DNA of 25,065 bases from Gaiellaceae bacterium (GTDB lineage Bacteria; Actinomycetota; Thermoleophilia; Gaiellales; Gaiellaceae): contig JAWVDL010000058.1 in NCBI GenBank assembly GCA_033857355.1, positions 1 through 25,065 of the forward strand, read 5' to 3'. Below are positions 2,341-19,816 of this stretch, piece after piece (positions within the stretch are counted from its first letter, which is position 1; each line of letters starts with the position of its first letter). Made by a program: the position numbers and the translations under genes. The notes beneath the pieces were generated by a model that was not told the DNA's origin, did no database searches, and worked only from the letters and a program-made list of their open reading frames with translations.

Positions 2341-3345
2341 GTGCCGACCGTCCTCTTCACGTGCGCCGGCCAGCGCGTCGACATCGTCACGGCGTTCTGC
2401 CGTGCGGGCGCGACGACGATCGCGACCGACGTCAATCCGCTTGCGCCGGCGCTCTACCACGCCGACCGCTACGCACTCGTCCCGCGGATCGGAACGCCCG
2501 ACTACGTCCCTGCGCTGCGCGATCTCGTTCGCGCGCACGACGTCGACCTGATCGTCCCGCTCACCGATCTCGACCCACCCGTGCTCGCGCGCGCCCGCGA
2601 CGAGCTCGGCGCGCTCGTGCTCCTCCCGGATGCAGAGCTCGTCGACTTGCTCGGCGACAAGTACCGCGCCCACCAGCTCTTCCTCGAGCGCGGGATCGGA
2701 TCCCCTCCGACCTGGCTACCCGACGAGCTGCCCGACGAGGTCGAGCTGCCGGTGCTCGTGAAAGCGCGGGAAGGCTTCGGCTCGCGGCACATCTACCGCG
2801 CCGACACGCGCGAGCAGCTGGACTTCTTCCTCGGCTACACGCCCGTCGACTCGATGGTGCAGGCCGTCTGCCTGGGAGAGGAGTTCTCGATCGACGTGTT
2901 CTGCGACCTCGAGGGGCACTGCGTGGCCGCGATCCCGCGCACGATGATCGAATCCAAGGGCGGCGAGTCGATCAAGGGCCGGAGCATCAAGGACTGGGAT
3001 CTGATCGAGCACGCCTGCGGTGTCGCCGAGGCGTTGCGGCTCGTGGGGCCGGCGAACATCCAGTGCTTCCGCGAGCCGGGCGGGAAGAAGCTCGTGACCG
3101 ACATCAACCCGCGCTTCGGCGGCGGCTTCCCGCTGCCACTCGCGGCCGGTGGCCGGTATCCGGAGCTTGCGCTCGCACTGGCAGCGGGGGAGCGGCTCGA
3201 GCCGAAGCTTGGGGAGTTCCGCGAAGGCGTCGTGATGACGCGCTTCTTCTCCCACCTGTCTCTGACCGCCGCAGGCGACGGTACGCTCGATCCGTTCGCC
3301 GAGGACCTCCCAGAGCCCGTCGCCACAGAGCCCGGCGAGGCGTGA
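2341..3345 (+). CDS. ATP-grasp domain protein (carbamoyl-phosphate-synthase-like, polysaccharide-cluster type)
   Basis: DKYRAH, PVLVKAREGFGSR, EEFSIDVF, ANIQCF, TDINPRFGGG motifs; TAGGCT -10 element 7 nt before the GTG start. Confidence 0.85.
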   Translation: MPTVLFTCAGQRVDIVTAFCRAGATTIATDVNPLAPALYHADRYALVPRIGTPDYVPALRDLVRAHDVDLIVPLTDLDPPVLARARDELGALVLLPDAELVDLLGDKYRAHQLFLERGIGSPPTWLPDELPDEVELPVLVKAREGFGSRHIYRADTREQLDFFLGYTPVDSMVQAVCLGEEFSIDVFCDLEGHCVAAIPRTMIESKGGESIKGRSIKDWDLIEHACGVAEALRLVGPANIQCFREPGGKKLVTDINPRFGGGFPLPLAAGGRYPELALALAAGERLEPKLGEFREGVVMTRFFSHLSLTAAGDGTLDPFAEDLPEPVATEPGEA

Positions 3346-6921: not shown

Positions 6922-7775
6922 GCGCTGCCGATCTGGAGGGAGAGCAGGAGGTCGATCTCGGCCGCTACGGCAGTGCGCTCGCAGCGCGATGGTGGCTGCC
7001 GGTGGCCGGCCTGATCCTCGGCGCGGTGCTCGGATACCTGCTCTCGGTCGGCGGCAAGCAGACCTTCAGCGCCCAGGCTGTCCTCTATCCCGGCACCCCG
7101 TACTCGCCGAGCGGCGGGAACGCGATCCAGAGCCCGCAGACGAATCCGGCGAGCATCCGCGCGATCGTCAAGTCGGAGTCGACGCTCCGGCGCGTCTCCG
7201 CCGACGTCGGGATCCCGGTCGCGAAGCTGCGCTCGGGCACCTCCGCGAACGTCGTGGGCGGGACGGTGCCGAAGACCGGCCAGGTGCCGCTCTACGCAAT
7301 CACCGTCAAGGGAGGCCAGCCGGCGAAGATCGCCCGTGCGGCGAACGAGCTGGCGCGGATCGCCGTCGCGGGCGTCTCGGCGGGCTATGTCGACACGAAG
7401 ATCGCCTCGCTGCAGGCCCAGGTGACCTCCGACCAGCAGCAGCTCACCTCGATCGACCAGGAGGTGGGGCGCATCGAGGCGACCCTCCCGCGTGTAGGGG
7501 CGAGCGACCGGATCGCCGCAGCCGCGCTCGTGCTCGCAGCGCAGCAACGTCGGGCGGTCGTCCAGCAGGATCTCCTCGCGGTCCGGCCGCTGCTCGCGCA
7601 GGCGCAGACCGTCGAGCGCGGGAGGATCCTCACCCGTGCGGTGGCCAGCAAGGCAACCGCACGCAGCCGCCGGAACTCGATCGTGGTCGCCGCGCTGATC
7701 GGCCTCATCCTCGGCGGCCTCGCCGCGCTCGCCTGGGAGCGCTTCGCCGCACGCGAACCCCGCCGCCCGGCCTAG
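6918..7775 (+). CDS. Wzz/PCP-like polysaccharide chain-length determinant (no kinase domain)
   Basis: N-terminal TM (RWWLPVAGLILGAVLGYLL), Gln/Ala-rich coiled-coil middle, C-terminal TM (NSIVVAALIGLILGGLAALAW). Confidence 0.75.
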   Translation: MSAADLEGEQEVDLGRYGSALAARWWLPVAGLILGAVLGYLLSVGGKQTFSAQAVLYPGTPYSPSGGNAIQSPQTNPASIRAIVKSESTLRRVSADVGIPVAKLRSGTSANVVGGTVPKTGQVPLYAITVKGGQPAKIARAANELARIAVAGVSAGYVDTKIASLQAQVTSDQQQLTSIDQEVGRIEATLPRVGASDRIAAAALVLAAQQRRAVVQQDLLAVRPLLAQAQTVERGRILTRAVASKATARSRRNSIVVAALIGLILGGLAALAWERFAAREPRRPA

Positions 7776-7790
7776 TACGCTCAGCGCGGG

Positions 7791-8732
7791 ATGCTCGAAG
7801 GGAAGACCGTCGCGGTCGTCGTGCCCGCGTACAACGAGGAGCGGCTGATCGCGGAGACCATCGCCGGGATCCCCGACTTCGTCGACCGCATCGTCGTGGT
7901 GGACGACAAGTCGCGTGACGCAACCGTCGAGCGGGCGCGCGCGGCGGGCGACCCGCGCGTCGAGGTCGTCGTCCACGAGAAGAACCAGGGCGTCGGCGCC
8001 GCGATCGTCACGGGCTACAAGCGAGCGCTGGCCGAGCGGGTCGACGTGACCGCCGTGATGGCAGGCGACAACCAGATGGATCCGGCCGAGCTCGAGTCGC
8101 TGGCAGGCCCCGTCGCGCGCGGGGAGCTCGACTATGCCAAGGCGAACCGCTTGTTCACGGGCCAGGCGTGGCAGCAGATCCCGCGGTACCGCTATCTCGG
8201 CAACGCCGTCCTCTCGCTCTTCACCAAGATCGCGTCCGGGTACTGGCACGTCGCCGACTCGCAGGCGGGCTATACGGCGGTCGGCCTCCCGATGCTGGAG
8301 CTGCTCGACCTCGACCGGATCTACAAGAGCTACGGCTTTCCGAACGACATCCTCGTGCACCTCAACGTGTGGAACGCCCGGGTCCGCGACATTCCCTCAC
8401 GCCCGATCTACGGCGTGGGCGAGAAGAGCGGGATCAAGGTGCGAAAGGTCGTTCCGCGCATCTCGTGGCTGCTCGTGAAGGGCTTCTTCTGGCGGATGCG
8501 CGAGAAATACGTGATCCGCGACTTCCACCCGCTCGTGTTCTTCTACATGCTCGGGTTCGCGATGACCTTCCTGGGCCTCGCGCTCGGAATCTTCGAGACC
8601 GTGCTGCGGATCATGGGCCACGGGATCCCGGCGGCGACGATCGTGCTCGTCGCGCTCCTCCTCATCTCCGGCTCGCAATTCGTGCTCTTCGGCATGTGGT
8701 TCGACATGGAGTCGAACAAAGACCTGCGTTAG
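7791..8732 (+). CDS. Glycosyltransferase family 2 (DPM-synthase/GtrB-like, two C-terminal TM helices)
   Basis: VVVPAYNEE, VVDDKSRD, NQGVGAA, MAGDNQMDP, DSQAGYTA motifs. Confidence 0.9.
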   Translation: MLEGKTVAVVVPAYNEERLIAETIAGIPDFVDRIVVVDDKSRDATVERARAAGDPRVEVVVHEKNQGVGAAIVTGYKRALAERVDVTAVMAGDNQMDPAELESLAGPVARGELDYAKANRLFTGQAWQQIPRYRYLGNAVLSLFTKIASGYWHVADSQAGYTAVGLPMLELLDLDRIYKSYGFPNDILVHLNVWNARVRDIPSRPIYGVGEKSGIKVRKVVPRISWLLVKGFFWRMREKYVIRDFHPLVFFYMLGFAMTFLGLALGIFETVLRIMGHGIPAATIVLVALLLISGSQFVLFGMWFDMESNKDLR

Positions 8733-8813
8733 CGGAGGTGTACCCGCGCTGTATCGGCCCGGGCGACAGTCGGACCCGTGAAGGCTGCCGCCGTTCACCG
8801 AAGCGGGCACCGA

Positions 8814-9500
8814 CTAGGCCGTCGCTGGTCCGGTCACGCCCTCGTCGGGCCGGTGCTTCGACCGGGCGTGGTACCGCCGCATCTTCGAACGGCTGCCGCA
8901 GCCCTCCATGCTGCACCAGCGCCGGGTGCGGTTTCGGCTCGTGTCGTAGAAGAGCCACCCGCAGTCGTCGACGCCGGGGCACTCGCGGACGCGCGTGAGG
9001 TCGCCGCCGGTCAGGAGCTCGACGGCGGACCCCACGACGGGCCAGAGGACCCGGCGCAAGTCCGGCTCGCTCGTCCACGACCAGACGAAGCGGTCGCCGG
9101 CGCGGACGAGAGAGGCCACTCGGACCGCGTCGAGGTGCTCGTCCTGGATCGCGCGCCGATCGTCGCGAGCAGGCTCCTCGCCGCGCGCGATAGCTCGGAA
9201 GACCCCGTCGACAGCCGCCCGGAGCCGGAGTGCGCGCTCGAAGACGTCGCGAGCGCCGTCGGGATCCGCCGCGGCAAGCTCGCCCATCTGGCTCATGGCC
9301 CGCTCTTCCAGCGCCTGGGCGTGCCAGCTCCAGCGAACGAGGTCGGTGTAGTCGTGCAGGAAGTCCTGCGGCGCGTCGCTCAGCGGGTCTTCGATCGTGT
9401 TCGCGAAATGGAGACAGAGCCGCCCGCCGAGCAGGCGCGGAAAGTCTCGTGTGAGTCCCTGCCCCCGGGTCTTCACGTTCCTTCTTTCGAGTCGCGCCAT
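8814..9500 (-). CDS. ABATE / CGNR zinc-finger domain putative transcriptional regulator
   Basis: LCLHFANT N-terminal motif; C-terminal RECPGVDDCGWLFYDTSRNRTRRWCSMEGCGSRSK; TAAACT -10 element 6 nt before the ATG. Confidence 0.88.
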   Translation of the reverse strand: MARLERRNVKTRGQGLTRDFPRLLGGRLCLHFANTIEDPLSDAPQDFLHDYTDLVRWSWHAQALEERAMSQMGELAAADPDGARDVFERALRLRAAVDGVFRAIARGEEPARDDRRAIQDEHLDAVRVASLVRAGDRFVWSWTSEPDLRRVLWPVVGSAVELLTGGDLTRVRECPGVDDCGWLFYDTSRNRTRRWCSMEGCGSRSKMRRYHARSKHRPDEGVTGPATA

Positions 9501-9585
9501 CGAACGAGTTTACCGTCTATACCAAGTTTGGAAGTAAAGGTTGCCGGACACGCATCCTTCGAGACCCAGGGGGGATGAGACGAAA

Positions 9586-10908
9586 ATGATCGGCAAGAGC
9601 CGCCTCGGCGCCGACTTCATGAAGCTCTGGAGCGCCCTGAGCATCTCGCTCATGGGCTCCGCGATCACCACGCTGGCGCTGCCGCTCATCGCGGCACGGA
9701 CGCTGGGCGCCTCCGCGCTTCAGATGGGCGCGCTCGCGGCGGCAAGCCAGGCGCCGTTCCTGTTCTTCAGCCTTCCTGCCGGCGCGTGGATCGACCGGAT
9801 GCGGCGTCGGCCGGTCCTCATCGCCTCGGATCTCGCGTCGGCGGTGTTGCTCCTTTCGATTCCGATCGCCGCGATCTTCGGAACGCCGCCGTACCTCCAG
9901 CTGTGCGCGGTGGCGTTCGGGGTCGGCACCTTCACGGTGCTCACGGATGTGGCGCACTACGCCTATGTGCCGACGCTCGTCGGGCGCCGGCAGCTGACCC
10001 CGTGCAACAGCCGCCTCCAGATCAGCCATTCGGTGGCCAACACGGCCGGTCCGGGCTTCGCCGGCATCCTCATTCAGCTGCTCAGCGCCTCGATCGCCGT
10101 ACTCGCCGACGCCTTCTCGTTCCTGGTCTCGGCCGTTCTCCTGCGGTCGATTCGCAAGCCGGAAACGGATGTCGAGCTCGAGGATCAGCCGGTCGGCCTG
10201 GTCCAGTCGGTGCGGGACGGGCTGCGGATGCTTCTCCGACACCGGCTGCTGCGTCCGATCATCCTCGTAACCGCGCCGGCCGGGTTCTTCGAGTCCGGCC
10301 TTCTCGCGCTCTACATCCTCTACGCCAGCCGGTACCTCCACCTGAGTCCGCTGCTGATCGGCCTGACCTTCGCCGCCGGCGGCGTGGGCGCGATCCCGGG
10401 CGCGATCCTTGCCGAGCGCGCCGGGGCACGCTTCGGCGTCGGGCCGACGATCATCGGCGGCTACGCCCTTGCCGGCGTTGCCGCGCTGCTCGTCCCCCTC
10501 GCGGGCGGCCCGGTTGCCGCCGTCGTCCTCATCCTGATGGTCGGCAAGGCAGTCGGCGGGATAACCGACACCGCCGCGAACATCCAGCAATGGACGCTCC
10601 GTCAGGCCGTCACGCCGGATCGCCTCGCCGGGCGAGTCACCGCGGGTCAACGCTTCCTCGTCTACGGCGCCTACGCGCTGGGCGCGCTCGCGAGTGGCGC
10701 CGTCGGCTCGCTGATCGGCGTCAGGGCCGCGCTCTTCGTCTTCGCGTTCGGCATGGTAGTCGCGCCGCTCTTGGGCGCATTCACGGCGCTGCGGGGCGTC
10801 CGCGAGCAGCCTGCGGAGGCCGATGACGATGAGTTGAAGCCGGCCGATGAGGAGAGGTCGGCTGCGGACGACACCCGGCACGCGATGCCGACGGCACCGG
10901 AGTTTTAG
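9586..10908 (+). CDS. MFS transporter (H+ antiporter / MFS_3-like)
   Basis: DFMKLWSALSISLMGS, AGAWIDRMRRRPVLIASD (motif A), RQAVTPDRLAGRV; many TM segments; start chosen at ATG 9586. Confidence 0.88.
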   Translation: MIGKSRLGADFMKLWSALSISLMGSAITTLALPLIAARTLGASALQMGALAAASQAPFLFFSLPAGAWIDRMRRRPVLIASDLASAVLLLSIPIAAIFGTPPYLQLCAVAFGVGTFTVLTDVAHYAYVPTLVGRRQLTPCNSRLQISHSVANTAGPGFAGILIQLLSASIAVLADAFSFLVSAVLLRSIRKPETDVELEDQPVGLVQSVRDGLRMLLRHRLLRPIILVTAPAGFFESGLLALYILYASRYLHLSPLLIGLTFAAGGVGAIPGAILAERAGARFGVGPTIIGGYALAGVAALLVPLAGGPVAAVVLILMVGKAVGGITDTAANIQQWTLRQAVTPDRLAGRVTAGQRFLVYGAYALGALASGAVGSLIGVRAALFVFAFGMVVAPLLGAFTALRGVREQPAEADDDELKPADEERSAADDTRHAMPTAPEF

Positions 10909-11054
10909 GCCGTCCAGGACAGCGCTCCACGGGCGCGCGACTGGAACGTCTCCCGGCCCCCCGATTGCGTGAAGCCAAAGCACGGTCCGATAGCGTGCGA
11001 CCGTCGTCGGGCGAGCCCCTATTCGCGCAACGCTCGAGCCATCAGGGATCTGAG

Positions 11055-12089
11055 GTGACGCAGCTTGTCGTCGGAGGCGCCGGCTTCATCGGCGCGAACC
11101 TGGCCGACCACCTCCTCGAATCCGGGTCGGATGTCGTCATCGCCGACGACTTCTCCCGTGTCGGCTCGCGAGAGAACGTGCGCTGGCTTTCGACGCGCCA
11201 CGCGGGTTTGAGGGTGGAGGCGGCCGACGTGGCGCGCGGGCCGGAGGTTCTCGAACCGCTCGTCCGGGGCGCAAGCGTCGTGTACCACTTCGCCGGCCAG
11301 GTCGCCGTGACCAAGTCGATCGAAGATCCGCGGCGCGACTTCGAGGTCAACGCTCTCGGCACCCTCAACCTTCTCGAAGCCGTGCGCGCGGCGAATCCCG
11401 AAGCCGTGCTGGTCTACGCGTCGACGAACAAGGTGTACGGAGCGCTCGAGGATCTGCCCGTCGAGGAGGAGGACACGCGCTACGCGTTCTCCGGCGGGCG
11501 CACGGGCATCGACGAAGGCCAGCCGCTCGACTTCCACTCTCCGTACGGGTGCTCGAAAGGGGCGGCCGACCAGTACGTCGCCGACTACTCCCGCACGTAC
11601 GGTCTTCGAACGATCGTCCTGCGCCAGTCGTGCATCTACGGCCAGAGGCAGTTCGGCGTCGAGGACCAGGGCTGGCTGGCCTGGTTCGCCATCGCAGCAG
11701 CACTCGGTCGCGAGATCACGATCTTCGGGGACGGCAAGCAGGTGCGTGACGTGCTCCACGTCGGCGACCTGGTCGACCTGATCGGGCGGGCGGTCGCGAA
11801 GAGCGAGAGCGTTCGCGCGCAGGTCTACAACGTCGGCGGGGGTCCCGAGGCAGCCGTGTCGCTGCTCGAGGCGATCGGCTTGATCGAACGGCACCTTGGT
11901 CGACCGCTGGACGTTTCGTTCTCGGAAGCCCGAACGGGCGATCAGCGGATCTACGTCAGCGACACCCGGCGCGCGCGGGACGAGCTCGGCTGGCAGCCAC
12001 GGGTGGGAGTGCGCGACGGGATCGCGCAGCTCATGGGCTGGATCGAGGCGAACCGGTCGCTCTTCGCGGTCGAGAGCTCGCCCGCCTGA
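11055..12089 (+). CDS. Extended SDR, CDP-paratose/CDP-tyvelose 2-epimerase-like
   Basis: VVGGAGFIG, HFAGQVAVTKS, YASTNKVYG, SPYGCSKGAADQY, LRQSCIYG, GDGKQVRDVLHVGD; GTG start after GAG at 11055. Confidence 0.85.
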   Translation: MTQLVVGGAGFIGANLADHLLESGSDVVIADDFSRVGSRENVRWLSTRHAGLRVEAADVARGPEVLEPLVRGASVVYHFAGQVAVTKSIEDPRRDFEVNALGTLNLLEAVRAANPEAVLVYASTNKVYGALEDLPVEEEDTRYAFSGGRTGIDEGQPLDFHSPYGCSKGAADQYVADYSRTYGLRTIVLRQSCIYGQRQFGVEDQGWLAWFAIAAALGREITIFGDGKQVRDVLHVGDLVDLIGRAVAKSESVRAQVYNVGGGPEAAVSLLEAIGLIERHLGRPLDVSFSEARTGDQRIYVSDTRRARDELGWQPRVGVRDGIAQLMGWIEANRSLFAVESSPA

Positions 12090-12097
12090 GCTACGAT

Positions 12098-12113
12098 ACG
12101 AACATATGTTCGT
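12098..12113. promoter_or_regulatory. LexA (SOS) box ACGAACATATGTTCGT overlapping the dinB start; -10 TACGAT at 12092-12097
   Basis: Perfect 16-bp palindrome matching the Gram-positive/actinobacterial CGAAC-N4-GTTCG consensus, directly at an SOS gene. Confidence 0.9.
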
Positions 12114-13302
12114 GTTGCCCGAGGCGACGATCCTCCACGCCGACCTCGACGCGTTCTTCGCCTCCGTCGAGCAGCGGGACGATCCGAGCCTCCGCGGCCG
12201 GCCGGTGATCGTCGGCGGGGGAGTCGTGCTCGCGGCGAGCTACGAGGCGAAGGCTCGCGGTATCCACTCGGCGATGGGCGGCGCGCAGGCTCGACGGCTC
12301 TGTCCTGACGCGATCGTGGTGCCACCGCGCATGTCGGCCTACGCCGACGCGAGCAAGGCGGTTTACCGCGTGTTCGAGGACACGACGCCGCTGGTCGAAG
12401 GGCTGTCGATCGACGAGGCGTTCCTGGACGTCAGCGGGATGAGGCGACTCGCCGGCAGCCCGATGGAGATCGCGGTCCGGCTGAAGCGCGAGGTCCGCGA
12501 ACACGTGGGGCTGCCGATCACCGTCGGCGTGGCCCGCACGAAGTTCCTCGCCAAGGTGGCTAGCGGGGTAGCCAAGCCCGACGGGCTCCTGGCCGTGCCG
12601 CCGTACCGGGAGCTCGCCTTCCTCCACCCACTGGCCGTGGAGCGGCTCTGGGGCGTCGGTCCGGTCACCGCGGACAAGCTCCGGTCGCGAGGGATCACGA
12701 CGGTCGGCCAGGTGGCGCAGCTTGCGGAGCCGATCCTCGTCTCGATGCTGGGCCGCGGAGCAGGTCGGCAGCTCCACGCGCTCGCGCACAATCGCGACCC
12801 GCGTGCGGTCCGGGTCGGCCGCCGTCGCGGCTCGGTCGGCTCGCAGCGCGCGCTGGGACGTTCGCGGAAGTCCGCCGAAGCCGTCGACGCCGTGCTCGTC
12901 TCGCTGGTCGACCGGGTCGCGAGACGGTTGCGGGCCGCGGATCGCGTCGGTCGCACGGTCGTCCTGCGATTGCGCTTTGCGGACTTCTCGCGGGCGACGC
13001 GGTCGCACACGTTGTCCTACGCGACCGAGAACACCCGAACGATCCTCGCGACGGCGAGAGGGCTGCTCACGGTTGCCATGCCGACGATCGAGCGCCGGGG
13101 GCTGACGCTGGTCGGCGTTTCGGTCGCGAACCTCGAAAACGATCTCCCCGCGCAGCTCATGCTGCCGCTCGACGGCTACTCGAGCGGAGCTCTGGACACC
13201 GCACTCGACGAGGTGCGAGTCCGGTTCGGCTCGGAGGCGATCACCCGAGCCGTGCTCCTCGGCCGCGACCAGGGACTGTCGCCGCCGCTCCTCCCGGATT
13301 GA
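12106..13302 (+). CDS. dinB: DNA polymerase IV (Y family)
   Basis: ILHADLDAFFASVEQ, AASYEAKARG, LSIDEAFLD, KFLAKVASGVAKPDG, LWGVG motifs; C-terminal little-finger domain. Confidence 0.95.
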   Translation: MFVLPEATILHADLDAFFASVEQRDDPSLRGRPVIVGGGVVLAASYEAKARGIHSAMGGAQARRLCPDAIVVPPRMSAYADASKAVYRVFEDTTPLVEGLSIDEAFLDVSGMRRLAGSPMEIAVRLKREVREHVGLPITVGVARTKFLAKVASGVAKPDGLLAVPPYRELAFLHPLAVERLWGVGPVTADKLRSRGITTVGQVAQLAEPILVSMLGRGAGRQLHALAHNRDPRAVRVGRRRGSVGSQRALGRSRKSAEAVDAVLVSLVDRVARRLRAADRVGRTVVLRLRFADFSRATRSHTLSYATENTRTILATARGLLTVAMPTIERRGLTLVGVSVANLENDLPAQLMLPLDGYSSGALDTALDEVRVRFGSEAITRAVLLGRDQGLSPPLLPD

Positions 13303-13311
13303 CCCGCTCGG

Positions 13312-13377
13312 TCAGGCCGGCAGCAGCTCCAGACGAACTGTGAACAGTCTGAGCAAACGGCGATATCGGTGACGCAT
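13312..13377 (-). CDS. Unannotated 21-aa small ORF MRHRYRRLLRLFTVRLELLPA
   Basis: ATG 13377-13375, TGA 13314-13312; strong SD GAGGAGGGAG just upstream; ECF-type promoter copy A upstream. Confidence 0.65.
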   Translation of the reverse strand: MRHRYRRLLRLFTVRLELLPA

Positions 13378-13397
13378 CTTTCTCCCTCCTCTCTGCT

Positions 13398-13429
13398 CTC
13401 AGGACGGATTCGCGGCCGCGCTTCTTCCC
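13398..13429 (-). promoter_or_regulatory. ECF-type promoter copy A: GGGAAGA-N16-CGTCCTGAG
   Basis: -35 at 13429-13423, -10 CGTC at 13406-13403; same geometry as three other copies. Confidence 0.8.
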
Positions 13430-13451
13430 TGGACGCCCGAACTGCGATTTC

Positions 13452-14021
13452 ATGGAGGACGTGCCTGCCGAAAGCGCCACCGCCGCAGAGCTCGTCGCCC
13501 GCTGCCGGGCCGGCGACCAGGACGCCTGGCGCGCGCTCGTCGAGCGGTTCTCGCGCTACGTCTTTGCGATCGCCGTCCAGGGCTTCCGGCTCCCGGAGCA
13601 TGCGGCCGAGGATGTCTTCCAGGAGGTCTTCGCCCGAACCTACGAGCACCTCGACCGGCTCCGCGACGACGCGGCGATTCAACCCTGGCTCGCCCAGCTC
13701 ACGCGCAGGCTCTGCATCGACCATCTGCGCGCTTCGTCGCGGGAGCAGCTCGAGGAAGAGCCCGAGCCCGACGTCGCGGAGGACACGTTCGAGCGCCTGG
13801 ACGATGCGCTCGCGGTGCACGAGGCGCTGGCCGAGCTGCCCGAGCAATGCGGGGAGATCCTCGACCGGTTCTTCGCGCGCGACGAGAGCTACCGGACGAT
13901 CGGCGAGCTCCTCGGCTTGCCTGCGGGAACCATCGCCAGCCGGATCTCGCGGTGCCTCGCAAAGCTGCGCGAGCACTTCGAGGGAAGAAATCCGTCCCCC
14001 AGCCCGTCTGGTGATCGATGA
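13452..14021 (+). CDS. ECF RNA polymerase sigma factor (sigma70 group IV)
   Basis: DQDAWRALVERFSRYVFAIA, AEDVFQEVF, WLAQLTRRLCIDHLR (region 2); LAELPEQCGEIL...SYRTIGELLGLPAGTIASRISRCLAKLR (region 4). Confidence 0.95.
   Translation: MEDVPAESATAAELVARCRAGDQDAWRALVERFSRYVFAIAVQGFRLPEHAAEDVFQEVFARTYEHLDRLRDDAAIQPWLAQLTRRLCIDHLRASSREQLEEEPEPDVAEDTFERLDDALAVHEALAELPEQCGEILDRFFARDESYRTIGELLGLPAGTIASRISRCLAKLREHFEGRNPSPSPSGDR
13982..14013 (+). promoter_or_regulatory. ECF-type promoter copy B inside the 3' end of the sigma gene: GGGAAGA-N16-CGTCTGGTG
   Basis: -35 at 13982-13988, -10 CGTC at 14005-14008, ATG of the next gene at 14018. Confidence 0.8.
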
Positions 14022-14272
14022 CCCATTACGACGAAGACCGGCTGGCTGCGCTGCTGCGCGTACTTCCGCCCGCTCCGAGAGGGTGGGTCACGGCTGCCCA
14101 GGAGCTGCCTCTGGCGCGCCGAGGGCTCGACGAGATCGTCGCCCGTGCCGAAGCCGACGCCGAGTTCAGGGCGCGGCTCGTCGCCGACCTCGAAGCCGCG
14201 CTCGAGGCCGAGGGCTACGAGCGGGACCCGGCCGTGCTCGAGGCGCTCCGGCAGCGTTTGGCCGGCGGTTGA
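14018..14272 (+). CDS. 84-aa soluble protein; candidate anti-sigma factor with an NHLP-leader-like C-terminal half
   Basis: ATGA overlap with the sigma gene; EIVARAEADAEFRARLVADLEAALEAEGY resembles NHLP-clan leaders; no TM helix; ends in GG. Confidence 0.75.
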   Translation: MTHYDEDRLAALLRVLPPAPRGWVTAAQELPLARRGLDEIVARAEADAEFRARLVADLEAALEAEGYERDPAVLEALRQRLAGG

Positions 14273-14859
14273 GCGAAGCCGACGACCTGCTTGGTCTGAG
14301 CGTCGGCGAGCTCCTCGACGAGCTGGCTTCGTCGGCTCCCGTTCCCGGATCTGGGTCGGCCTCCGCGCTCGTTGCGGCGATGGCCGCCGCGCTCGTGTCG
14401 ATGGCCGCGCGGCTTGCCTCCGACTGGGAGGACGCGTCGGGTGTCGCCGCCCAGGCAGACGCGCTGCGGATCCGCGCGGGCCGGCTCGCGCAGCTCGACG
14501 CAGAGGCGTACGGCGCCGTGCTCGAGCTCCGCGAGGCTCCTCTGGAGGAGCGACCCGAGGATCGAGACTTCCGTCTCGGAGGAGCGTTCTCGCACGCGGC
14601 GGACGTGCCGCTCGAGATCGCCGGCGTCGCCGAGGACGTCGCGGAGCTTGCAGCGCTCGTCGCCCACGCGAGCGCGCTCGCGCCGCGGGCGGACGCCGCC
14701 GGGGCGGCCGTGCTGGCGGCTGCGGCCGCCCGGAGCGCGGCGAGCCTCGTGGCGATCAACCTGTCGGTGGCGGAAGGCGATCCTCGCCCCGTGCGTGCTC
14801 GTGCGCACGCCCAGGCGGCCGAGCTCGCTGCTCGGCGCGCGCTCGAGGCGTCGGGCTAG
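14269..14859 (+). CDS. Cyclodeaminase/cyclohydrolase family protein (FTCD C-terminal domain-like)
   Basis: TTGA overlap; LLDELASSAPVPGSGSASALVAAMAAALVSM, DAEAY, AADVPLEIA, VAINL motifs. Confidence 0.85.
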   Translation: MSEADDLLGLSVGELLDELASSAPVPGSGSASALVAAMAAALVSMAARLASDWEDASGVAAQADALRIRAGRLAQLDAEAYGAVLELREAPLEERPEDRDFRLGGAFSHAADVPLEIAGVAEDVAELAALVAHASALAPRADAAGAAVLAAAAARSAASLVAINLSVAEGDPRPVRARAHAQAAELAARRALEASG

Positions 14860-14863
14860 CCGG

Positions 14864-14895
14864 AAAGACAAAAGCCGCCCGGCGTCCGAGCGGCT
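14864..14895 (-). terminator. Intrinsic terminator for the 67-aa gene (possibly bidirectional)
   Basis: Minus-strand stem AGCCGCUCGG/CCGGGCGGCU (one U-G pair) with a 3-nt loop, then UUUGUCUUU; lies between convergent stop codons. Confidence 0.7.
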
Positions 14896-14916
14896 CCTGT
14901 CTCTCCTGTGCTCGCC

Positions 14917-15120
14917 TCAGGCCGGCGCGGCGATTGCGGGCGCCGCGGCTTCGCGGACTCGGCGGTGGGCGAAGACCGGGCCCAGCGAGCTCAGTGCGCG
15001 CCGGACGCGGTGCTCACGCGGAACGGCCTCGGCGGCCAGGCGGTAGCGGGCCGCCTCGCGCAAGAGATCGTCGTTGCGGGCTCTGGCGAGTTCTTGCATC
15101 ACATATGGGTGGGACTGCAT
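14917..15120 (-). CDS. 67-aa hypothetical helical protein
   Basis: SD AAGGAG before the ATG, ECF-type promoter copy C upstream, terminator downstream; MQSHPYVMQELARARNDDLLREAARYRLAAEA... Confidence 0.75.
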   Translation of the reverse strand: MQSHPYVMQELARARNDDLLREAARYRLAAEAVPREHRVRRALSSLGPVFAHRRVREAAAPAIAAPA

Positions 15121-15148
15121 TTGCGGCTCCTTGCTCGTCGGTGACGAC

Positions 15149-15180
15149 TACTAGACGGGGGCCGCGTTGCTTTTCTTCCC
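15149..15180 (-). promoter_or_regulatory. ECF-type promoter copy C: GGGAAGA-N16-CGTCTAGTA
   Basis: -35 at 15180-15174, -10 CGTC at 15157-15154. Confidence 0.8.
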
Positions 15181-15197
15181 TTGTAGGCTCGCTGCCG

Positions 15198-16016
15198 ATG
15201 TCGCACGAGCCCCTCCCCGCCTGGAGCCTCCGGCCCGATGCCGTCGAGGAGCTCGCGGCCGCTACGGACTGGCCCGAGCGCATGACGCGCGACTGGGCCT
15301 GGGGCGGTGCGACCGGCTCGGGAGTTCGGGTCTGCATCCTCGACAGCGGCATCGAGCCCGGGCATCCGCTCGTCGGCGCGGTCGACCGGTCGGTGGCGCT
15401 CAGCGGCGAGGGCGACGACGTGACGGTCGCGGAGGACGCCGAAGGCGACCTGTGCGGACACGGGACGGCGTGCGCCGGCATCGTTCGCTCGATCGCGCCC
15501 GACTGTTCCATCTCGAGCGTCCGCGTGCTCGGGGCGGGGTACACGGGCAGCGGAAGCATCCTGCTGGCGGGTCTGCGGTGGGCGATCGAGCAGGAGTACG
15601 ACGTGATCAACATGAGCCTGTCGACCACGAAGCGTCAGTTCGCGAGCACCTTGCACGAGCTCGCCGACAGCGCCTATTTTCGGCGGACGATGCTCGTCGC
15701 CTCGGCCCACAACATGCCCGTCGAGAGCTATCCCTGGCGGTTCGCCTCGGTCATCTCCGTCGGCAGCCACGAGGACGACGACCCGCTCGCCTACTACTAC
15801 AACCCGCGCCCGCCGGTCGAGTTCTTCGCGCGCGGGCTCAACCTCGAGGTCGCCTGGCTCGGCGGCGGCACCCTGCACGTGACGGGGAACAGCTTCGCGA
15901 CGCCCCACATGACGGCGATCTGCGCCCTCGTCCTGAGCAAGCACCGCGAGCTGACGCCGTTCCAGCTCAAGAGCCTGCTCTACCTGACCGCGTCGAACGT
16001 GGGAGGCGAGGGATGA
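15198..16016 (+). CDS. S8 family (subtilase) serine peptidase, cytoplasmic, no obvious signal peptide or long propeptide
   Basis: Catalytic motifs CILDSG (Asp), HGTACAG (His), VASAHN (oxyanion Asn), GNSFATP (Ser); start at ATG 15198, 8 nt after TAGGCT. Confidence 0.92.
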   Translation: MSHEPLPAWSLRPDAVEELAAATDWPERMTRDWAWGGATGSGVRVCILDSGIEPGHPLVGAVDRSVALSGEGDDVTVAEDAEGDLCGHGTACAGIVRSIAPDCSISSVRVLGAGYTGSGSILLAGLRWAIEQEYDVINMSLSTTKRQFASTLHELADSAYFRRTMLVASAHNMPVESYPWRFASVISVGSHEDDDPLAYYYNPRPPVEFFARGLNLEVAWLGGGTLHVTGNSFATPHMTAICALVLSKHRELTPFQLKSLLYLTASNVGGEG

Positions 16017-16663
16017 GCGAGGAGGAGCTTCGGGCAGCGGTCGCGGCCGGCGTGCTCGGCGCGGAGGAGTCGTTCCAGAGCCTCTTGCAGTCGGTTGTCG
16101 AGGTCGCCCGGGCGATCTTCCGCGCGCAGGCGTCGTCCATCTTCCTGCTCGACGAGCAGACGGACGAGCTGGTTTTCGAAGCGGTCGCCGGCGAGGGCGC
16201 CGACACGCTCCGCGGCCGCCGTTTTCCGTCGAGCACCGGCGTCGCCGGGTGGGTGCTGGTCGCCCGCCAGCCGCTCGTGATCGAGAACGTCGGCGAGGAT
16301 CCTCGCTTCGCCCGTGAGGCCGCCGAGAGCACGGGCTACGTCCCGAAAGGGCTCATGGCGGTCCCGCTCCTGCACGAAGAACGTGCGCTCGGCGTGCTCG
16401 AAGTGCTCGACCGGCCGCAGGAGGCGGCCTTCAGCCTCGCCGAGATCGAGCTCCTGGGCCTTTTTGCGAATCAGGCTGCGATCGCGCTCGACCTGCTCCG
16501 GCGGGCGCGACGAGCGCAAGCCGCTGTGCAGGGCAGCCAGCTCGCCGTCGTCGCGCGGATCGCCCGCGCCCTCGACGAAGAGCCCAGGCGCCGGAAGGAT
16601 GCCACGCTTCGTCTGCTCGAGGCGATCGAGGAGCTGCTCGCCGACCGCCCCGAGAACGACTGA
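16013..16663 (+). CDS. Stand-alone GAF domain protein
   Basis: ATGA overlap with the peptidase; SSIFLLDEQTDELVF, GVAGWV, DPRF, LMAVPL...LGVLEVLDR, FANQAAIAL; short C-terminal helix and no output domain. Confidence 0.9.
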   Translation: MSEEELRAAVAAGVLGAEESFQSLLQSVVEVARAIFRAQASSIFLLDEQTDELVFEAVAGEGADTLRGRRFPSSTGVAGWVLVARQPLVIENVGEDPRFAREAAESTGYVPKGLMAVPLLHEERALGVLEVLDRPQEAAFSLAEIELLGLFANQAAIALDLLRRARRAQAAVQGSQLAVVARIARALDEEPRRRKDATLRLLEAIEELLADRPEND

Positions 16664-16681
16664 GCCCGGCCGAAGCCGGGC
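16664..16681. terminator. GC-rich hairpin GCCCGGC-CGAA-GCCGGGC between convergent genes
   Basis: Perfect 7-bp stem; reads as a c(UUCG)g tetraloop on the minus strand; no clear U-tract. Confidence 0.55.
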
Positions 16682-16708
16682 CCAGTTCGAAGAGTCGAGA
16701 CCGACGGG

Positions 16709-16873
16709 CTAGGGCTCGTTGCGGTCCGTCTCGCTTTCCATCCCGGCGTCATTCCGTCCGATGTCGGCACGGCCCACGTCGGCCCGTCCTACGTCGTACC
16801 GATGAGCCTCGACATCCGGCTCCTCTTTCTCGTCCTCTGCGGAGCGGACATGCTCGTCCTGTCCTTCTGACAT
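16709..16873 (-). CDS. 54-aa acidic peptide with tandem DxGRx repeats (precursor-like)
   Basis: SD AAGGAGGAG before ATG 16873; MSEGQDEHVRSAEDEKEEPDVEAHRY-DVGRA-DVGRA-DIGRN-DAGME-SETDRNEP; ECF promoter copy D upstream. Confidence 0.75.
   Translation of the reverse strand: MSEGQDEHVRSAEDEKEEPDVEAHRYDVGRADVGRADIGRNDAGMESETDRNEP
16742..16795 (-). repeat. 15-bp-period coding repeat (DVGRA/DVGRA/DIGRN/DAG)
   Basis: GAC GTA GGA CGG GCC / GAC GTG GGC CGT GCC / GAC ATC GGA CGG AAT / GAC GCC GGG. Confidence 0.8.
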
Positions 16874-16912
16874 TTCTCCTCCTTCCGGAAGGTCCGCGCG
16901 ATCTGCGCTACA

Positions 16913-16944
16913 CACCAGACGCGGAATCCTGGCCGAATCTTCCC
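16913..16944 (-). promoter_or_regulatory. ECF-type promoter copy D: GGGAAGA-N16-CGTCTGGTG
   Basis: -35 at 16944-16938, -10 CGTC at 16921-16918; the 9-nt -10 region is identical to copy B. Confidence 0.8.
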
Positions 16945-16988
16945 ACGTCGCTCTTCCAAAACACAATCGGCACTGCGATCCTGCGCGC

Positions 16989-18644
16989 GTGAAGCCGGCA
17001 AACCGCCTCGGCGACTCGTTGCACGCGTTCCGCGACGTCTTCCGGAATCGCGATCTGCGACGCCTCGAGCTCGCCTGGGCGGGCTCGATGATCGGCACCT
17101 GGGCGTACGGCGTCGGGCTCGTGGTGTTCGCGTACGAGGCCGGCGGTGCGACGGCGGTCGGCCTCGTCGGCTTCGCCCGCTGGACGGCGGCGGCGCTGGC
17201 GGCTCCGCTGACCGGAGCGCTCGGCGACCGGCTGCCACGGGCGCGCGTGATGGTCGGAGCAGACGCGATTCGCGCGGTGACGCTGGTGGCAGCCGCGGCG
17301 GTGGTGTTCGCCAACGCCCCGGTCTGGATCGTCTACGTGCTCTCGGGAGTGGTTGCGGTGACCTCTACGGCCTTTCGGCCGGCTCAAGCGGCGCTCGTGC
17401 CGTCGCTCGCCCAGACGCCGCAGGAGCTGACCGCGGCAAACGTCGTCGCCACGACGATCGAGAGCGCGGGGATCTTCATTGGCCCTGCGCTCGGCGGCTT
17501 CCTGCTCGCGGTCTCGTCCACGGGCGTCGTCTTCCTCGTCACCGCTGCGACCTTCGTCTGGTCGGCCGCGCTCGTGCTGCGGATCACGCCGAAGCCCGCG
17601 CCGAAGCCAGAGGAGGGTGCGGCGCGAGAGCCGTTTCTCGCGCACGCAGCCGGCGGCTTCCGCGCGATCGCGGGCGACAAGGGCCTGCGCGTGCTCGTCG
17701 GTCTCCTCGCCGCGCAGACCTTCGTCATGGGGGCCTTGAGCGTGCTGGTCGTGGTTGCGTCGATCGAGGTCGTGGGCCTCGGCAGCTCCGGCGTCGGGAT
17801 CCTCAACTCGGCGCTCGGTGTCGGCGGGCTTCTCGGCGCGGTCGCAGCGGCCGTGTTCGTGGGGCGCGAGCGGCTCGCGGTCGGGTTCACCCTCGGGATC
17901 GTGCTCTGGGGACTGCCGATCGCGCTCATCGGCATCTGGCCGAGTGCCGTTCTCGCAGTGGTCATGCTCGGCTGCGTCGGTGTCGGGAACACCGTCGTCG
18001 ACGTCGCCGGGATGACGTTGCTCCAGCGGTCGGCCGCCGACGCGGTGCTTGCGCGGGTCTTCGGCGTGCTCGAGAGCCTCATCGTCGGCTCGATCGCGCT
18101 CGGGGCGGCCGCCGCGCCGCTGCTGATCGCTGCTGTCGGCGCGCGTGGCGCGCTCGTCGTCACCGGCGCCTTTCTCCCGGTCCTCGTCGCGCTCACGTGG
18201 CGGAGGTTGTCGGTGATCGACTCAAGCGCAACCCCGCCCCTCGCCCGCGTGGCGCTGCTGCGCGCGATTCCGATTTTCGCGCCGCTCCCGGCGCCGGCCC
18301 TCGAACGGACGGCGTCGCGCCTCGTCCCCGTGCAGGCCGCCGCGGGCACCGAGATCATCCGGGCCGGCGAGCCCGGCGATCGCTTCTACATCGTCGAGAG
18401 CGGCGAGGTGGAGATCCTGCCGGAGGCGAACGATCCGTCGCTGCACGGGCCGGGGGCCTACTTCGGGGAGATCGCCCTCCTGCGGGACTTGCCCCGAACG
18501 GCCACCGTCCGCGCCCGCAGCGACGTCGCGCTCCTCGCGCTTGCGCGCGACGACTTCCTTGCCGCGGTCAACGGCGATCCCGAGAGCCGCCAAGCGGCGG
18601 ACATGGTCGTCATGTCGCGCCTCGCGCCGTCGGTGCCCGTCTAG
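16989..18644 (+). CDS. MFS transporter fused to a C-terminal cyclic-nucleotide-binding domain
   Basis: TGALGDRLPRARVM (motif A), many TM segments; C-terminal LLRAIPIF...GEPGDRFYIVESGEV...YFGEIALLRDLPRTATVRA. Confidence 0.9.
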   Translation: MKPANRLGDSLHAFRDVFRNRDLRRLELAWAGSMIGTWAYGVGLVVFAYEAGGATAVGLVGFARWTAAALAAPLTGALGDRLPRARVMVGADAIRAVTLVAAAAVVFANAPVWIVYVLSGVVAVTSTAFRPAQAALVPSLAQTPQELTAANVVATTIESAGIFIGPALGGFLLAVSSTGVVFLVTAATFVWSAALVLRITPKPAPKPEEGAAREPFLAHAAGGFRAIAGDKGLRVLVGLLAAQTFVMGALSVLVVVASIEVVGLGSSGVGILNSALGVGGLLGAVAAAVFVGRERLAVGFTLGIVLWGLPIALIGIWPSAVLAVVMLGCVGVGNTVVDVAGMTLLQRSAADAVLARVFGVLESLIVGSIALGAAAAPLLIAAVGARGALVVTGAFLPVLVALTWRRLSVIDSSATPPLARVALLRAIPIFAPLPAPALERTASRLVPVQAAAGTEIIRAGEPGDRFYIVESGEVEILPEANDPSLHGPGAYFGEIALLRDLPRTATVRARSDVALLALARDDFLAAVNGDPESRQAADMVVMSRLAPSVPV

Positions 18645-19363
18645 AGGTTGATTTCCAGGCCGTCCTGGGCCTGCTCGAACCCGTCGGCGAGCGGAAGCTC
18701 CGAGGGGCGGTGCGTGACGAGGAGACGCTTGGCGCCGGAGGCTTCGAAGGCGGCCGCGGCCTCGTCCAGGGACAGGTGCCCGCGCAGGCCCTCCTCGCCC
18801 GACTCCGCGAGTGTCGCCTCGCAGATGAACACGTCGGCGTCGCGGGCGAGCTCGGCGAGAGCGTCCGCCGGCCCGGAGTCGGCCGAGTAGGCCAGGGTGG
18901 CCTCCGGCCCGGTGACGCGGAAGCCGAACGACAGCAGCCCGTAGTGCGGGACACGAAACGGCGTGATCGAGAGGCCGGCCGCGTCGAATGCCGTGCCGTC
19001 GGCGTATTCGCGGATCGGGAAGGTCGAGTCGAACATCTCCTCGCTGCCGAAGGTCCGGCCGAAGGTGCGCAGCTGCTCGGCGCCGCCGGGAGGCAGCCAG
19101 AGCTCGGGTGGCTCCACGTCGCGCGCGGGTCCGAACATGAGGCTCCAGGTCCACGGTACGAGGTCGCCCCAGTGGTCGAGGTGGAAATGGCTGATCGCGA
19201 TCGCATCCACCCGAGGCCAGTCCTCGCGCTCCCGAAGCCGGGGCAGCACGCCGGGGCCGCAGTCGAGCAGCAGGCGGCCCGACTCCTCCTCGACGAGGTA
19301 TCCAGACTGCGCACCGCCGGGATTCGGCCACGCGGGAGAGCAGCCTGCCACGACCACGTTCAC
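18641..19363 (-). CDS. MBL-fold metallo-hydrolase (RNase Z / YhfI / Rv1339-like)
   Basis: VAGCS...GGAQSGYLV, LLLDCGPG, SHFHLDH (HxHxDH), VPHY, YSADSG, FICEAT, GHLS, VTH; start GTG 19363 (alternative 19390); CTAG shares stop codons with the convergent MFS gene. Confidence 0.88.
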   Translation of the reverse strand: MNVVVAGCSPAWPNPGGAQSGYLVEEESGRLLLDCGPGVLPRLREREDWPRVDAIAISHFHLDHWGDLVPWTWSLMFGPARDVEPPELWLPPGGAEQLRTFGRTFGSEEMFDSTFPIREYADGTAFDAAGLSITPFRVPHYGLLSFGFRVTGPEATLAYSADSGPADALAELARDADVFICEATLAESGEEGLRGHLSLDEAAAAFEASGAKRLLVTHRPSELPLADGFEQAQDGLEINL

Positions 19364-19411
19364 CGGTCGGAGCCCTTCATCCGTGCGCACTCTGTGTCAT
19401 AGAATGGCCGG

Positions 19412-19816
19412 GTGCCCGCCCCGACCGAGGTTCTCCAGCGCGTTCCACTGTTCTCCGATCTCGATCGACGGGATCTGGAGAGGATCGCAGGCTCGATGAA
19501 GGAGCGCACGTTCAATGCGGGCGACCCGGTGCTCGTCGAGGGCGAGAGCGGTGTCGGCTTCTTCATCATCGACAGCGGCAACGCGACGGTGTCCGTCGGC
19601 GGCGAAGAGCGCCGCAAGCTCGGGCCCGGCGACTACTTCGGCGAGGTCGCGCTCCTCGCGCAGACCGATCGAACCGCGACGGTGACGGCTGAGAGCGAGC
19701 TTCACTGCTACGGCCTGACGAGCTGGGCCTTCAGGCCGATCATCGAGGAGAACGCCGGCCTCGCCTGGAAGCTCCTGCAGTCGCTCGGCAAGATGCTGAG
19801 CGGCCCGCGCGGCTGA
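19412..19816 (+). CDS. Stand-alone cyclic-nucleotide-binding domain protein
   Basis: LQRVPLFSDL, EGESGVGFFIIDSG, LGPGDYFGEVALLAQTDRTATVTA; no HTH; TAGAAT -10 element 6 nt before the GTG. Confidence 0.9.
   Translation: MPAPTEVLQRVPLFSDLDRRDLERIAGSMKERTFNAGDPVLVEGESGVGFFIIDSGNATVSVGGEERRKLGPGDYFGEVALLAQTDRTATVTAESELHCYGLTSWAFRPIIEENAGLAWKLLQSLGKMLSGPRG

Follow-up and report, generated by a model that had tools for sequence, protein, structure and literature searches.

The window analysed here is the whole of a complete 25-kb contig (C58; 25,065 nucleotides) of a Gaiellaceae bacterium, from an assembly of 2.0 Mb that is 70.8% complete and has 70% GC. Near its middle lies a locus comprising a sigma factor of the extracytoplasmic function (ECF) type, an 84-residue protein (P84), an FTCD_C-type protein, an S8 subtilisin, a GAF protein, an acidic peptide (p54) and a major facilitator superfamily (MFS) transporter fused to a cyclic nucleotide-binding domain (CNBD), together with two further small open reading frames (ORFs; pep21 and p67), a metallo-beta-lactamase (MBL) fold hydrolase and a stand-alone CNBD protein (Table 1). 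Since raw ORF lists are untrustworthy at such a GC content, genes were called via codon-position GC (GC3 frame analysis) and then checked against Pfam and NCBIfam. All eleven ORFs named in an earlier reading of the bare sequence, hereafter the original prediction, are present. Overlaps of 4 nt join sigma to P84 (ATGA), P84 to FTCD_C (TTGA) and S8 to GAF, and a strong Shine-Dalgarno (SD) sequence precedes each of the minus-strand small ORFs of 21, 67 and 54 aa.

Table 1. Genes and promoter motifs of the ECF locus, in window coordinates.
Feature	Position	Strand	Basis
pep21, basic 21-aa micro-ORF divergent from the sigma gene	13312-13377	-	strong SD
ECF-type promoter copy A, faces pep21	13403-13429	-	GGGAAGA-N16-CGTC; equivalent site in L001/L002
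ECF (group 4) sigma factor, 189 aa	13452-14021	+	Sigma70_r2 + r4; TIGR02937
ECF-type promoter copy B, in the final codons of sigma, 9 nt ahead of the P84 start codon	13982-14008	+	motif
P84, 84 aa, NHLP/LigA-like C-terminal half	14018-14272	+	PF14407/NHLP-like, below cut-off
FTCD_C (cyclodeaminase/cyclohydrolase fold) protein, 196 aa, TTG start	14269-14859	+	PF04961
p67, 67-aa small protein, predicted ECF target, lineage-restricted	14917-15120	-	SD + promoter C
ECF-type promoter copy C, faces p67	15154-15180	-	motif; equivalent sites in L003, L013
S8 subtilisin, predicted cytoplasmic, without prodomain, 272 aa	15198-16016	+	PF00082
Free-standing 216-aa GAF protein with translational coupling to S8	16013-16663	+	GAF, 73.7 bits
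p54, acidic 54-aa peptide, one EPDVEAH, 5-residue tandem repeats	16709-16873	-	motif, synteny
ECF-type promoter copy D, faces p54	16918-16944	-	motif
MFS transporter (EntS/MFS_3-like) with C-terminal CNBD, 551 aa	16989-18644	+	MFS_1, MFS_3, cNMP_binding (residues 449-527)
MBL-fold hydrolase	18641-19390	-	Lactamase_B_2
Stand-alone CNBD protein, 134 aa	19412-19816	+	cNMP_binding, 56.6 bits

The sigma factor consists of Sigma70_r2 and r4/r4_2 with no other Pfam domain, which places it in ECF group 4. It scores 94.6 bits against TIGR02937 (cut-off 42.9) and matches no named equivalog in NCBIfam (SigM, 80.7 vs 190); its orthologs are 55-87% identical across all Thermoleophilia loci read. The motif GGGAAGA-N16-CGTC occurs four times within 3.5 kb, where 0.18 copies are expected, and 0 of 100 shuffles gave four. 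Three minus-strand copies stand before the small ORFs and one plus-strand copy before P84. Even a looser form of the motif, with a spacer of N14-18, has only 23 matches across the 2.0-Mb assembly, and those examined away from the locus all fall within coding sequence.

For comparison, 20-kb stretches around 40 P84 loci were fetched, and the eleven proteins and the motif were mapped onto them. In 37/37 Thermoleophilia loci a copy of the motif (26 exact, 11 with up to two changes) lies no more than 80 nt upstream of P84, even where P84 has parted from sigma (L036, L037). The CGTC end lies mostly 9-19 nt from the P84 start codon, so that the transcript would be leaderless or nearly so. Likewise, 27 of 28 acidic peptides of the p54 type are preceded by the motif, mostly at 36-62 nt from the start. 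In genomes G769 and G546, S8-GAF-MFS and sigma are on different contigs, yet the peptide and its motif are retained together, as a regulon of a trans-acting sigma factor predicts. In the window and in related loci, the copies before P84 mostly read GGGAAGAAA (copy B) and those before the acidic peptides mostly GGGAAGATT (copy D); the -35 extension may be tuned differently in the two sets. A separate observation concerns L035 (positions 10390-10810), where three tandem motif copies are spaced about 200 nt apart and two of them precede almost the same sequence, perhaps because a small target gene next to an FTCD_C gene was duplicated.

Of the genomes sampled, 60/76 in the family of the window, 73/401 in the class and 9/401 in the phylum have P84. 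The expectation that the genes co-occur in other genomes was borne out: in the class sample of 401 genomes, 57 have both P84 and S8, 16 have P84 without S8, one has S8 (as a partial match) without P84, and 327 have neither. Thus 57 of the 58 genomes bearing S8 also have P84, in counts that come from related genomes and hence are not independent events. Within five families where each of the two genes is rare, they are found in the same genomes. Sigma and P84 are adjacent in nearly all mapped loci, and S8-GAF lies within the 20-kb stretch in about two thirds of them. Where S8-GAF is present, MFS-CNBD almost always follows, and its orthologs stand beside the peptide gene in about 24 loci. Because S8 shares the strand of P84 or FTCD and begins no more than 62 nt beyond one of them in 13/24 loci, and because S8 and GAF overlap by 4-8 nt in 23/24, the usual form of the locus is a single operon of sigma, P84, FTCD_C, S8 and GAF. 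From genus to genus the order of the genes changes but the set persists, which points to function rather than inertia. Both the regulon and the linkage of its genes are solid.

The original prediction had described three blocks of one layout, each with a minus-strand small ORF back-to-back with a plus-strand operon. All the ORFs and motif copies of these blocks exist, but their symmetry is limited to this genus-level lineage, because p67 is inserted there between FTCD and S8; in most relatives S8-GAF directly follows P84/FTCD on the same strand. Nor is the locus of the window self-contained, as had been proposed: the nearest relatives carry a 3.8-kb gene of cyclase-AAA_16-TPR architecture (cyclase-STAND) between FTCD and p67, which is missing here.

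P84 has 5498 homologs in a large protein collection, nearly all of them 84 aa long among the matches listed, and in the Atlas it falls into 'hypothetical protein' clusters only. A scan with this single protein gave 14 loci of near relatives, in metagenome-assembled genomes labelled Gaiellaceae, Gaiellales or Thermoleophilia. The protein is conserved along its whole length at 45-96% identity, and its AF2 model is helical (pLDDT 74). In a profile comparison by hhalign it aligns (98%, E 3e-14) to a set of ~130-aa proteins, over their residues 39-111. The genes of this set lie downstream of ECF sigmas in another family, and all the proteins have an invariant H-x3-C-x2-C near the N-terminus. These homologs are not recognised as zf-HC2 by Pfam, and two of four show a weak match to the anti-sigma family NF052375 (E 0.03). 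Because of the codon overlap with sigma, the alignment to the HxxxCxxC proteins and the weak NF052375 match, P84 is probably a truncated, non-canonical anti-sigma partner. In L044, L046, L047 and L008 (family f18), the ~130-aa H-x3-C-x2-C proteins are soluble, have a P84-like C-terminal half and are encoded 3' of an ECF sigma, with several CNBD proteins around; they may represent the ancestral form of the sigma partner.

Alternatively, P84 would be a genuine precursor or leader of the NHLP type for a ribosomally synthesized and post-translationally modified peptide (RiPP), and the locus a natural-product cluster with no sigma/anti-sigma pair. Its similarity to PF14407 (38 bits vs 48), NF038399 (32.2 vs 40) and the nitrile hydratase alpha subunit invites this view, as do the S8 protease and the exporter close by. 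Every match is below cut-off, however, including that to TIGR03793 (16.5 vs 50.9), and the weak structural and sequence neighbours of P84 are confined to nitrile hydratase alpha and an NHLP precursor. Conservation of the whole protein is unlike that of precursor cores; P84 ends at the leader-like domain, with no cleavage site and variable core after it. No modifying enzyme is among the Pfam and NCBIfam matches of the locus, and P84 adjoins sigma in 22/24 ordered loci. We give this explanation hardly any credence. The related idea of a leader that has lost its core was ruled out, since the C-terminal Gly-Gly of P84, which the original prediction had stressed, is not conserved. ATP-grasp enzymes are the modifying enzymes of PF14407 precursors (PMC8939145); the locus has none, and the ATP-grasp gene of the window lies 11 kb off in a sugar cluster.

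The FTCD_C protein scores 89.8 bits against PF04961 (cut-off 24.5), and among PDB entries 7vg4 is the nearest (E 6e-14). In most loci its gene adjoins that of sigma or P84, and the two often overlap by 4 nt. Its sequence is poorly conserved, few residues being shared among orthologs, and it stays far below the FchA equivalog of NCBIfam (69 vs 275). Together, the few conserved residues and the low FchA score hint at a binding or sensing role. Genes for folate or histidine metabolism are absent from the window.

SigR-RsrA is an ECF sigma factor paired with a zinc-binding anti-sigma (ZAS) factor. The present sigma resembles such pairs in being co-translated with a small soluble partner, which here is homologous to the C-terminal two-thirds of HxxxCxxC proteins beside ECF sigmas, and in a target promoter with the usual AAC-type -35 and a CGTC -10. 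In contrast to them, P84 has neither a zinc motif nor a detectable anti-sigma domain and carries an NHLP/LigA-like domain instead, FTCD_C is a third constant partner, and the sigma-dependent promoter lies after the sigma gene and drives the partner, not sigma itself.

The S8 enzyme matches PF00082 with 98 bits, and its triad D49/H88/S232 is invariant in 25 orthologs. Its AF2 model (pLDDT 90) is close to subtilisin BPN' in Foldseek (E 1e-18). It has no prodomain and no hydrophobic N-terminus, and in NCBIfam it stays below the cut-offs of the named maturases PatA (TIGR03895, 31.7 vs 421), QhpE (99.1 vs 165) and mycosin (99.8 vs 279). Its pairing with GAF persists outside the class.

In loci with S8-GAF-MFS, the acidic ORF always lies between GAF and MFS-CNBD, divergent from the transporter. 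p54 itself has no family match in Pfam or NCBIfam, and a sequence search gave 9 near-identical homologs only, because the family is too variable for a word-based search; it was found via synteny and motif instead. Its 28 members contain 59 instances of a motif, in 1-8 copies per peptide, that consists of four or five acidic residues, Asp (52/59), Val/Phe, Glu (59/59), Ala/Gly and His (59/59). A few members were missed by the automatic screens. The stretch after the motif is hypervariable and often built of lineage-specific tandem units of 4-11 residues, whereas only 3-10 residues, mostly basic, follow the last copy. The peptides are acidic, repetitive and often His-rich, and the codons of the motif vary synonymously between loci. 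In L015, two back-to-back MFS-CNBD genes each have a divergent D-V-E-A-H peptide gene (7771-7911 and 11460-11669). Among the motif matches read in three genomes with no S8 ortholog there is no such peptide, the matches of two of these genomes having been fetched in part.

The other two small ORFs behave differently from p54. The original prediction had asked whether the small ORFs and the motif travel with the sigma, S8, GAF and FTCD-like genes. The motif does travel with P84 and the acidic peptide, and p54-type peptides are strictly tied to S8-GAF and MFS-CNBD, but pep21 and p67 are conserved in near relatives only and no link to S8 was seen. pep21 is intact as a 21-aa ORF in L057, L059 and L001; synonymous to non-synonymous changes of 7:3 and 3:9 (the latter against L057) indicate weak constraint. 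In other genera its position is taken by 27-aa ORFs or by a secreted protein of 223 aa whose Arg-rich N-terminus resembles that of pep21, and pep21 may be a relic. p67 has 21 homologs, nearly all of 67 aa and all from close relatives, with no family match in NCBIfam or Pfam; a ratio of 21:11 against L059 identifies it as coding, as judged from codon changes, and distant loci have looser look-alikes under the same promoter. It could be argued that the small ORFs are not translated and that the ECF promoters make antisense or regulatory RNAs against divergent or convergent genes. The weak constraint on pep21, which points into the 3' end of dinB, is in line with this. For the small ORFs as a whole it is quite improbable, given an amino acid motif that is conserved with synonymous codon variation across 28 peptides, the strong SD sequences of all small ORFs and the substitution pattern of p67.

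S8 orthologs of 45-61% identity are found in other families of Actinomycetota in which P84 was not found. The tally of these families includes the unpublished genomes G120 and G088, from which no locus is drawn and on which no claim rests. In 16 loci outside the class S8 adjoins GAF, usually with MFS-CNBD and often with cyclase-STAND, while a free CNBD protein and MBL occur in some; none of the 16 has sigma, P84 or FTCD. Repeat peptides with DVEGH or EDD-x-EGQ accompany seven of the 16. One locus of another Actinomycetota family, L120 of genome G235 (7091-14776), combines GAF and S8 with a regulator of the CRP type, an NHLP-like precursor, an enzyme made up of RamC_N plus a kinase, and a fusion of an ABC exporter with a CNBD. 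The precursor reaches 33.3 bits against TIGR04509 (cut-off 34) and contains EDIDAH followed by an aromatic-rich (Tyr/His/Trp-rich) tail, and the pairing of RamC_N with a kinase is one that class III/IV lanthipeptide synthetases also show. By its predicted gene content, L120 thus places the S8-GAF pair inside a recognisable, lanthipeptide-like RiPP cluster, which is the best support for S8 as a peptide-maturation protease and for CNBD-fused transporters as exporters of its products. In L117 (13840-14037), an 'aroma-sacti' RiPP-family protein (NF045560, 67 bits) with SDVEGH is encoded some 5 kb away from S8-GAF, perhaps by coincidence.

Several known systems share parts of this arrangement. In lanthipeptide clusters, an S8 leader peptidase, LanP, acts with a dedicated exporter. 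As in those clusters, a precursor peptide, a subtilisin and an exporter stand together here, and in L120 S8-GAF lies beside an NHLP-like precursor and a RamC_N-kinase. The window differs in having no modifying enzyme, in a protease that is predicted to be cytoplasmic, prodomain-less and GAF-coupled, in an MFS exporter (ABC in L120) fused to CNBD, and in an acidic precursor that is a multi-motif repeat protein. Cyanobactin precursors of the PatE type have multiple cores, and G(L/V)E(A/P)S is the site at which the subtilase PatA cleaves them. This repeated five-residue site, with a hydrophobic residue, Glu and a small residue, has the same register as D-V-E-A-H, and several cassettes and an S8 protease are also common to both. 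Unlike PatA, the present enzyme scores far below TIGR03895; there is no macrocyclase, heterocyclase or DUF domain, and the tails are tandem oligopeptides. Export sets for NHLP/Nif11 precursors that include a CNBD protein (TIGR03896) were reportedly described by Haft in 2010. The locus resembles these sets in having an NHLP-like domain and CNBD proteins beside a peptide exporter, whereas TIGR03896 matches only weakly here (E 1e-4 to 1e-6, far below cut-off), neither C39-ABC nor HlyD is found, and the NHLP-like protein would be a sigma partner and not cargo. The Phr signalling peptides of Bacillus, finally, are released by subtilisin-type proteases extracellularly after Sec export. There too, S8 enzymes cut short peptides from small precursors; here, protease and peptide have no signal peptides and a transporter is adjacent. 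No description of the layout or of the peptide motif turned up in an incomplete literature collection, whether under Franean1_4349, under FTCD_C together with ECF, under DVEAH/DVEGH or under subtilisin combined with GAF, CNBD and MFS. Equally, the ECF reclassification paper makes no mention of these domains in its main text. The view of the original prediction that this is not a described system agrees with the absence of a published description from that collection.

From these data we propose, with a probability of about 0.55, that the locus is an ECF regulon joined to a module for peptide processing and export. It would consist of two units. Unit 1 is specific to Thermoleophilia and comprises sigma, P84 and FTCD_C, whereas Unit 2 is widespread in Actinomycetota and comprises the cytoplasmic subtilisin with its GAF partner, the CNBD-fused transporter and, between them, the fast-evolving acidic peptide. 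In Unit 1, P84, possibly with FTCD_C, would keep sigma inactive. Once free, sigma would recognise GGGAAGA-N16-CGTC; the copy in its own last codons would drive P84-FTCD, on a transcript that in most relatives would also span S8-GAF, and the remaining copies would drive the small ORFs. Since a sigma-driven promoter lies before P84, active sigma would re-make its inhibitor and so establish negative feedback. In Unit 2, the subtilisin would cut the peptide at or beside D-V-E-A/G-H, with V/F at P4, A/G at P2 and His at P1, under the control of GAF, and the transporter would export the fragments upon binding of a cyclic nucleotide to its CNBD. The cyclase-STAND protein of relatives would make this nucleotide, MBL would remove it and the free CNBD protein would read it. 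The genes present, the promoter motif, their synteny and co-occurrence, and the motif of the peptides are observed, whereas all steps of binding, cleavage, export and ligand recognition are inferred; for the processing and export of peptides and the gating by a nucleotide this inference is well motivated. As speculation, a cut between V and E might leave an N-terminal x-x-His of the ATCUN type (amino-terminal Cu(II)- and Ni(II)-binding).

The close association of S8-GAF with the sigma partners also admits a different role, as the signal input of sigma. Upon binding of a ligand to GAF, the subtilisin would degrade P84/FTCD_C and thereby free sigma; the acidic peptides would then be sigma-induced disordered stress or metal-binding proteins and not substrates. 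In most loci S8-GAF stands directly after P84/FTCD in one operon, 57 of 58 S8-bearing genomes have P84, the leader-like fold of P84 could serve as a handle for the protease, and the peptides are hydrophilin-like in being acidic, repetitive and often His-rich. All the same, the set of S8-GAF, peptide and CNBD transporter exists in other Actinomycetota families without sigma, P84 and FTCD, and 16 genomes of the class keep P84 without S8, with sigma beside P84 in the three whose loci were read (L014, L016 and L020). It follows that S8 cannot be required for sigma control. Moreover, P84 has no D-V-E-A-H motif, the position of the peptide between GAF and transporter is invariant, and the S8-GAF pair of L120 sits in a RiPP cluster. 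Taken together, we consider a signal-input role rather unlikely.

Several observations weigh against the proposed regulon with its processing and export module. P84 lacks the HxxxCxxC zinc motif, zf-HC2, RskA and any other anti-sigma domain recognised by Pfam or NCBIfam. A Foldseek search with its model gave nothing at E<1, with weak matches to nitrile hydratase and leader peptides only, and is thus neutral on an anti-sigma fold. The 16 genomes with sigma-P84-FTCD and no S8 reveal that the two units are separable. Outside the class, the screens found no repeat peptide of the above kind in 9 of the 16 S8-GAF loci. The GAF protein matches best to NifA-type proteins in NCBIfam and, by eye, lacks the NKFDE signature of GAF domains that bind cyclic nucleotides (cNMPs); the cNMP sensing by GAF that had been suggested finds no sign in this domain. 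There is no cyclase gene in the window and at least nine are elsewhere in the genome. The MBL protein reaches 126.5 bits against the phosphodiesterase equivalog NF041851 (cut-off 400), a similarity at fold level only. A public transcript run contained 20% of sampled words; its contigs are short, derive from relatives and carry neither direction nor transcript ends, so that the run is neutral on transcription of the locus.

An extended form of the proposal is that the peptides belong to an unrecognised class of ribosomal peptides in Actinomycetota, with multi-copy acidic precursors whose D-V-E-A/G-H sites would be cut in the cytoplasm by a GAF-controlled prodomain-less subtilisin, and with cAMP/cGMP-dependent export through CNBD transporters. 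In Thermoleophilia they would be under an ECF sigma with a RiPP-leader-like anti-sigma. The exported fragments would be short, lineage-specific and often His-rich or basic, and would act as signals or metal-binding peptides. We regard this extension as possible and put it forward tentatively.

pep21, p67, MBL and the stand-alone CNBD are peripheral to the system. The original prediction had noted that the latter two follow the three blocks. MBL is kept in the nearest relatives only and the stand-alone CNBD is present in about a third of related loci. The MBL protein is possibly a cyclic-nucleotide phosphodiesterase, and its ortholog in L001 carries PF23023 (Anti-Pycsar Apyc1 family). This ortholog, together with PADLOC matches at domain level both to the cyclase PycC and to the CNBD portions of Pyc effectors, might suggest that the cyclic-nucleotide block is a Pycsar-like anti-phage defence merely adjoining the ECF operon. 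A Pycsar system pairs PycC with a CNBD-TM or CNBD-TIR effector. However, the matches cover generic cyclase and CNBD domains only (E 1e-5 to 1e-13), the effector would here be an MFS protein with 12 predicted transmembrane helices, and no cyclase is in the window. The gene set is also stably syntenic in 60/76 family genomes and not patchy, and a sigma promoter lies inside the block. The defence reading was rejected, as the PADLOC matches are at domain level only, and its probability is very low. Elsewhere in the assembly (G000; 2 Mb, 71% complete), contigs C15, C151, C333, C93, C380, C306, C134 and C203 carry at least nine class III cyclase genes, most with frames of 750-1200 aa, which suggests that the organism relies heavily on cyclic nucleotides as signals.

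The immediate surroundings of the locus are cell-envelope polysaccharide genes and dinB, a neighbourhood that is not common to related loci. Most of the remaining contig is filled by a cluster of glycosyltransferase, sugar-transferase and epimerase genes that includes the PylC-like ATP-grasp (2341-3345). A divergent pair at 8814-10908 encodes an ABATE/zf-CGNR regulator and a second MFS_3-type transporter, which has no CNBD.

Gaiellales are abundant soil bacteria of which very few have been cultured. The locus provides for them a defined regulon that can be put to the test, in which a single sigma factor has a clear promoter motif and only a few targets. Should the proposal be true, P84 and FTCD_C would represent a new type of ECF partner, with an NHLP/LigA-like fold and an FTCD_C protein, and the acidic peptides a new, fast-evolving family of secreted or processed peptides that is recognisable by a five-residue motif. 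To our knowledge, many CNBD-fused transporters of Actinomycetota have no known function. The proposal would tie the export of peptides directly to signalling by cyclic nucleotides in this phylum, and the S8-GAF pair would become a candidate leader peptidase for the genome mining of RiPPs.

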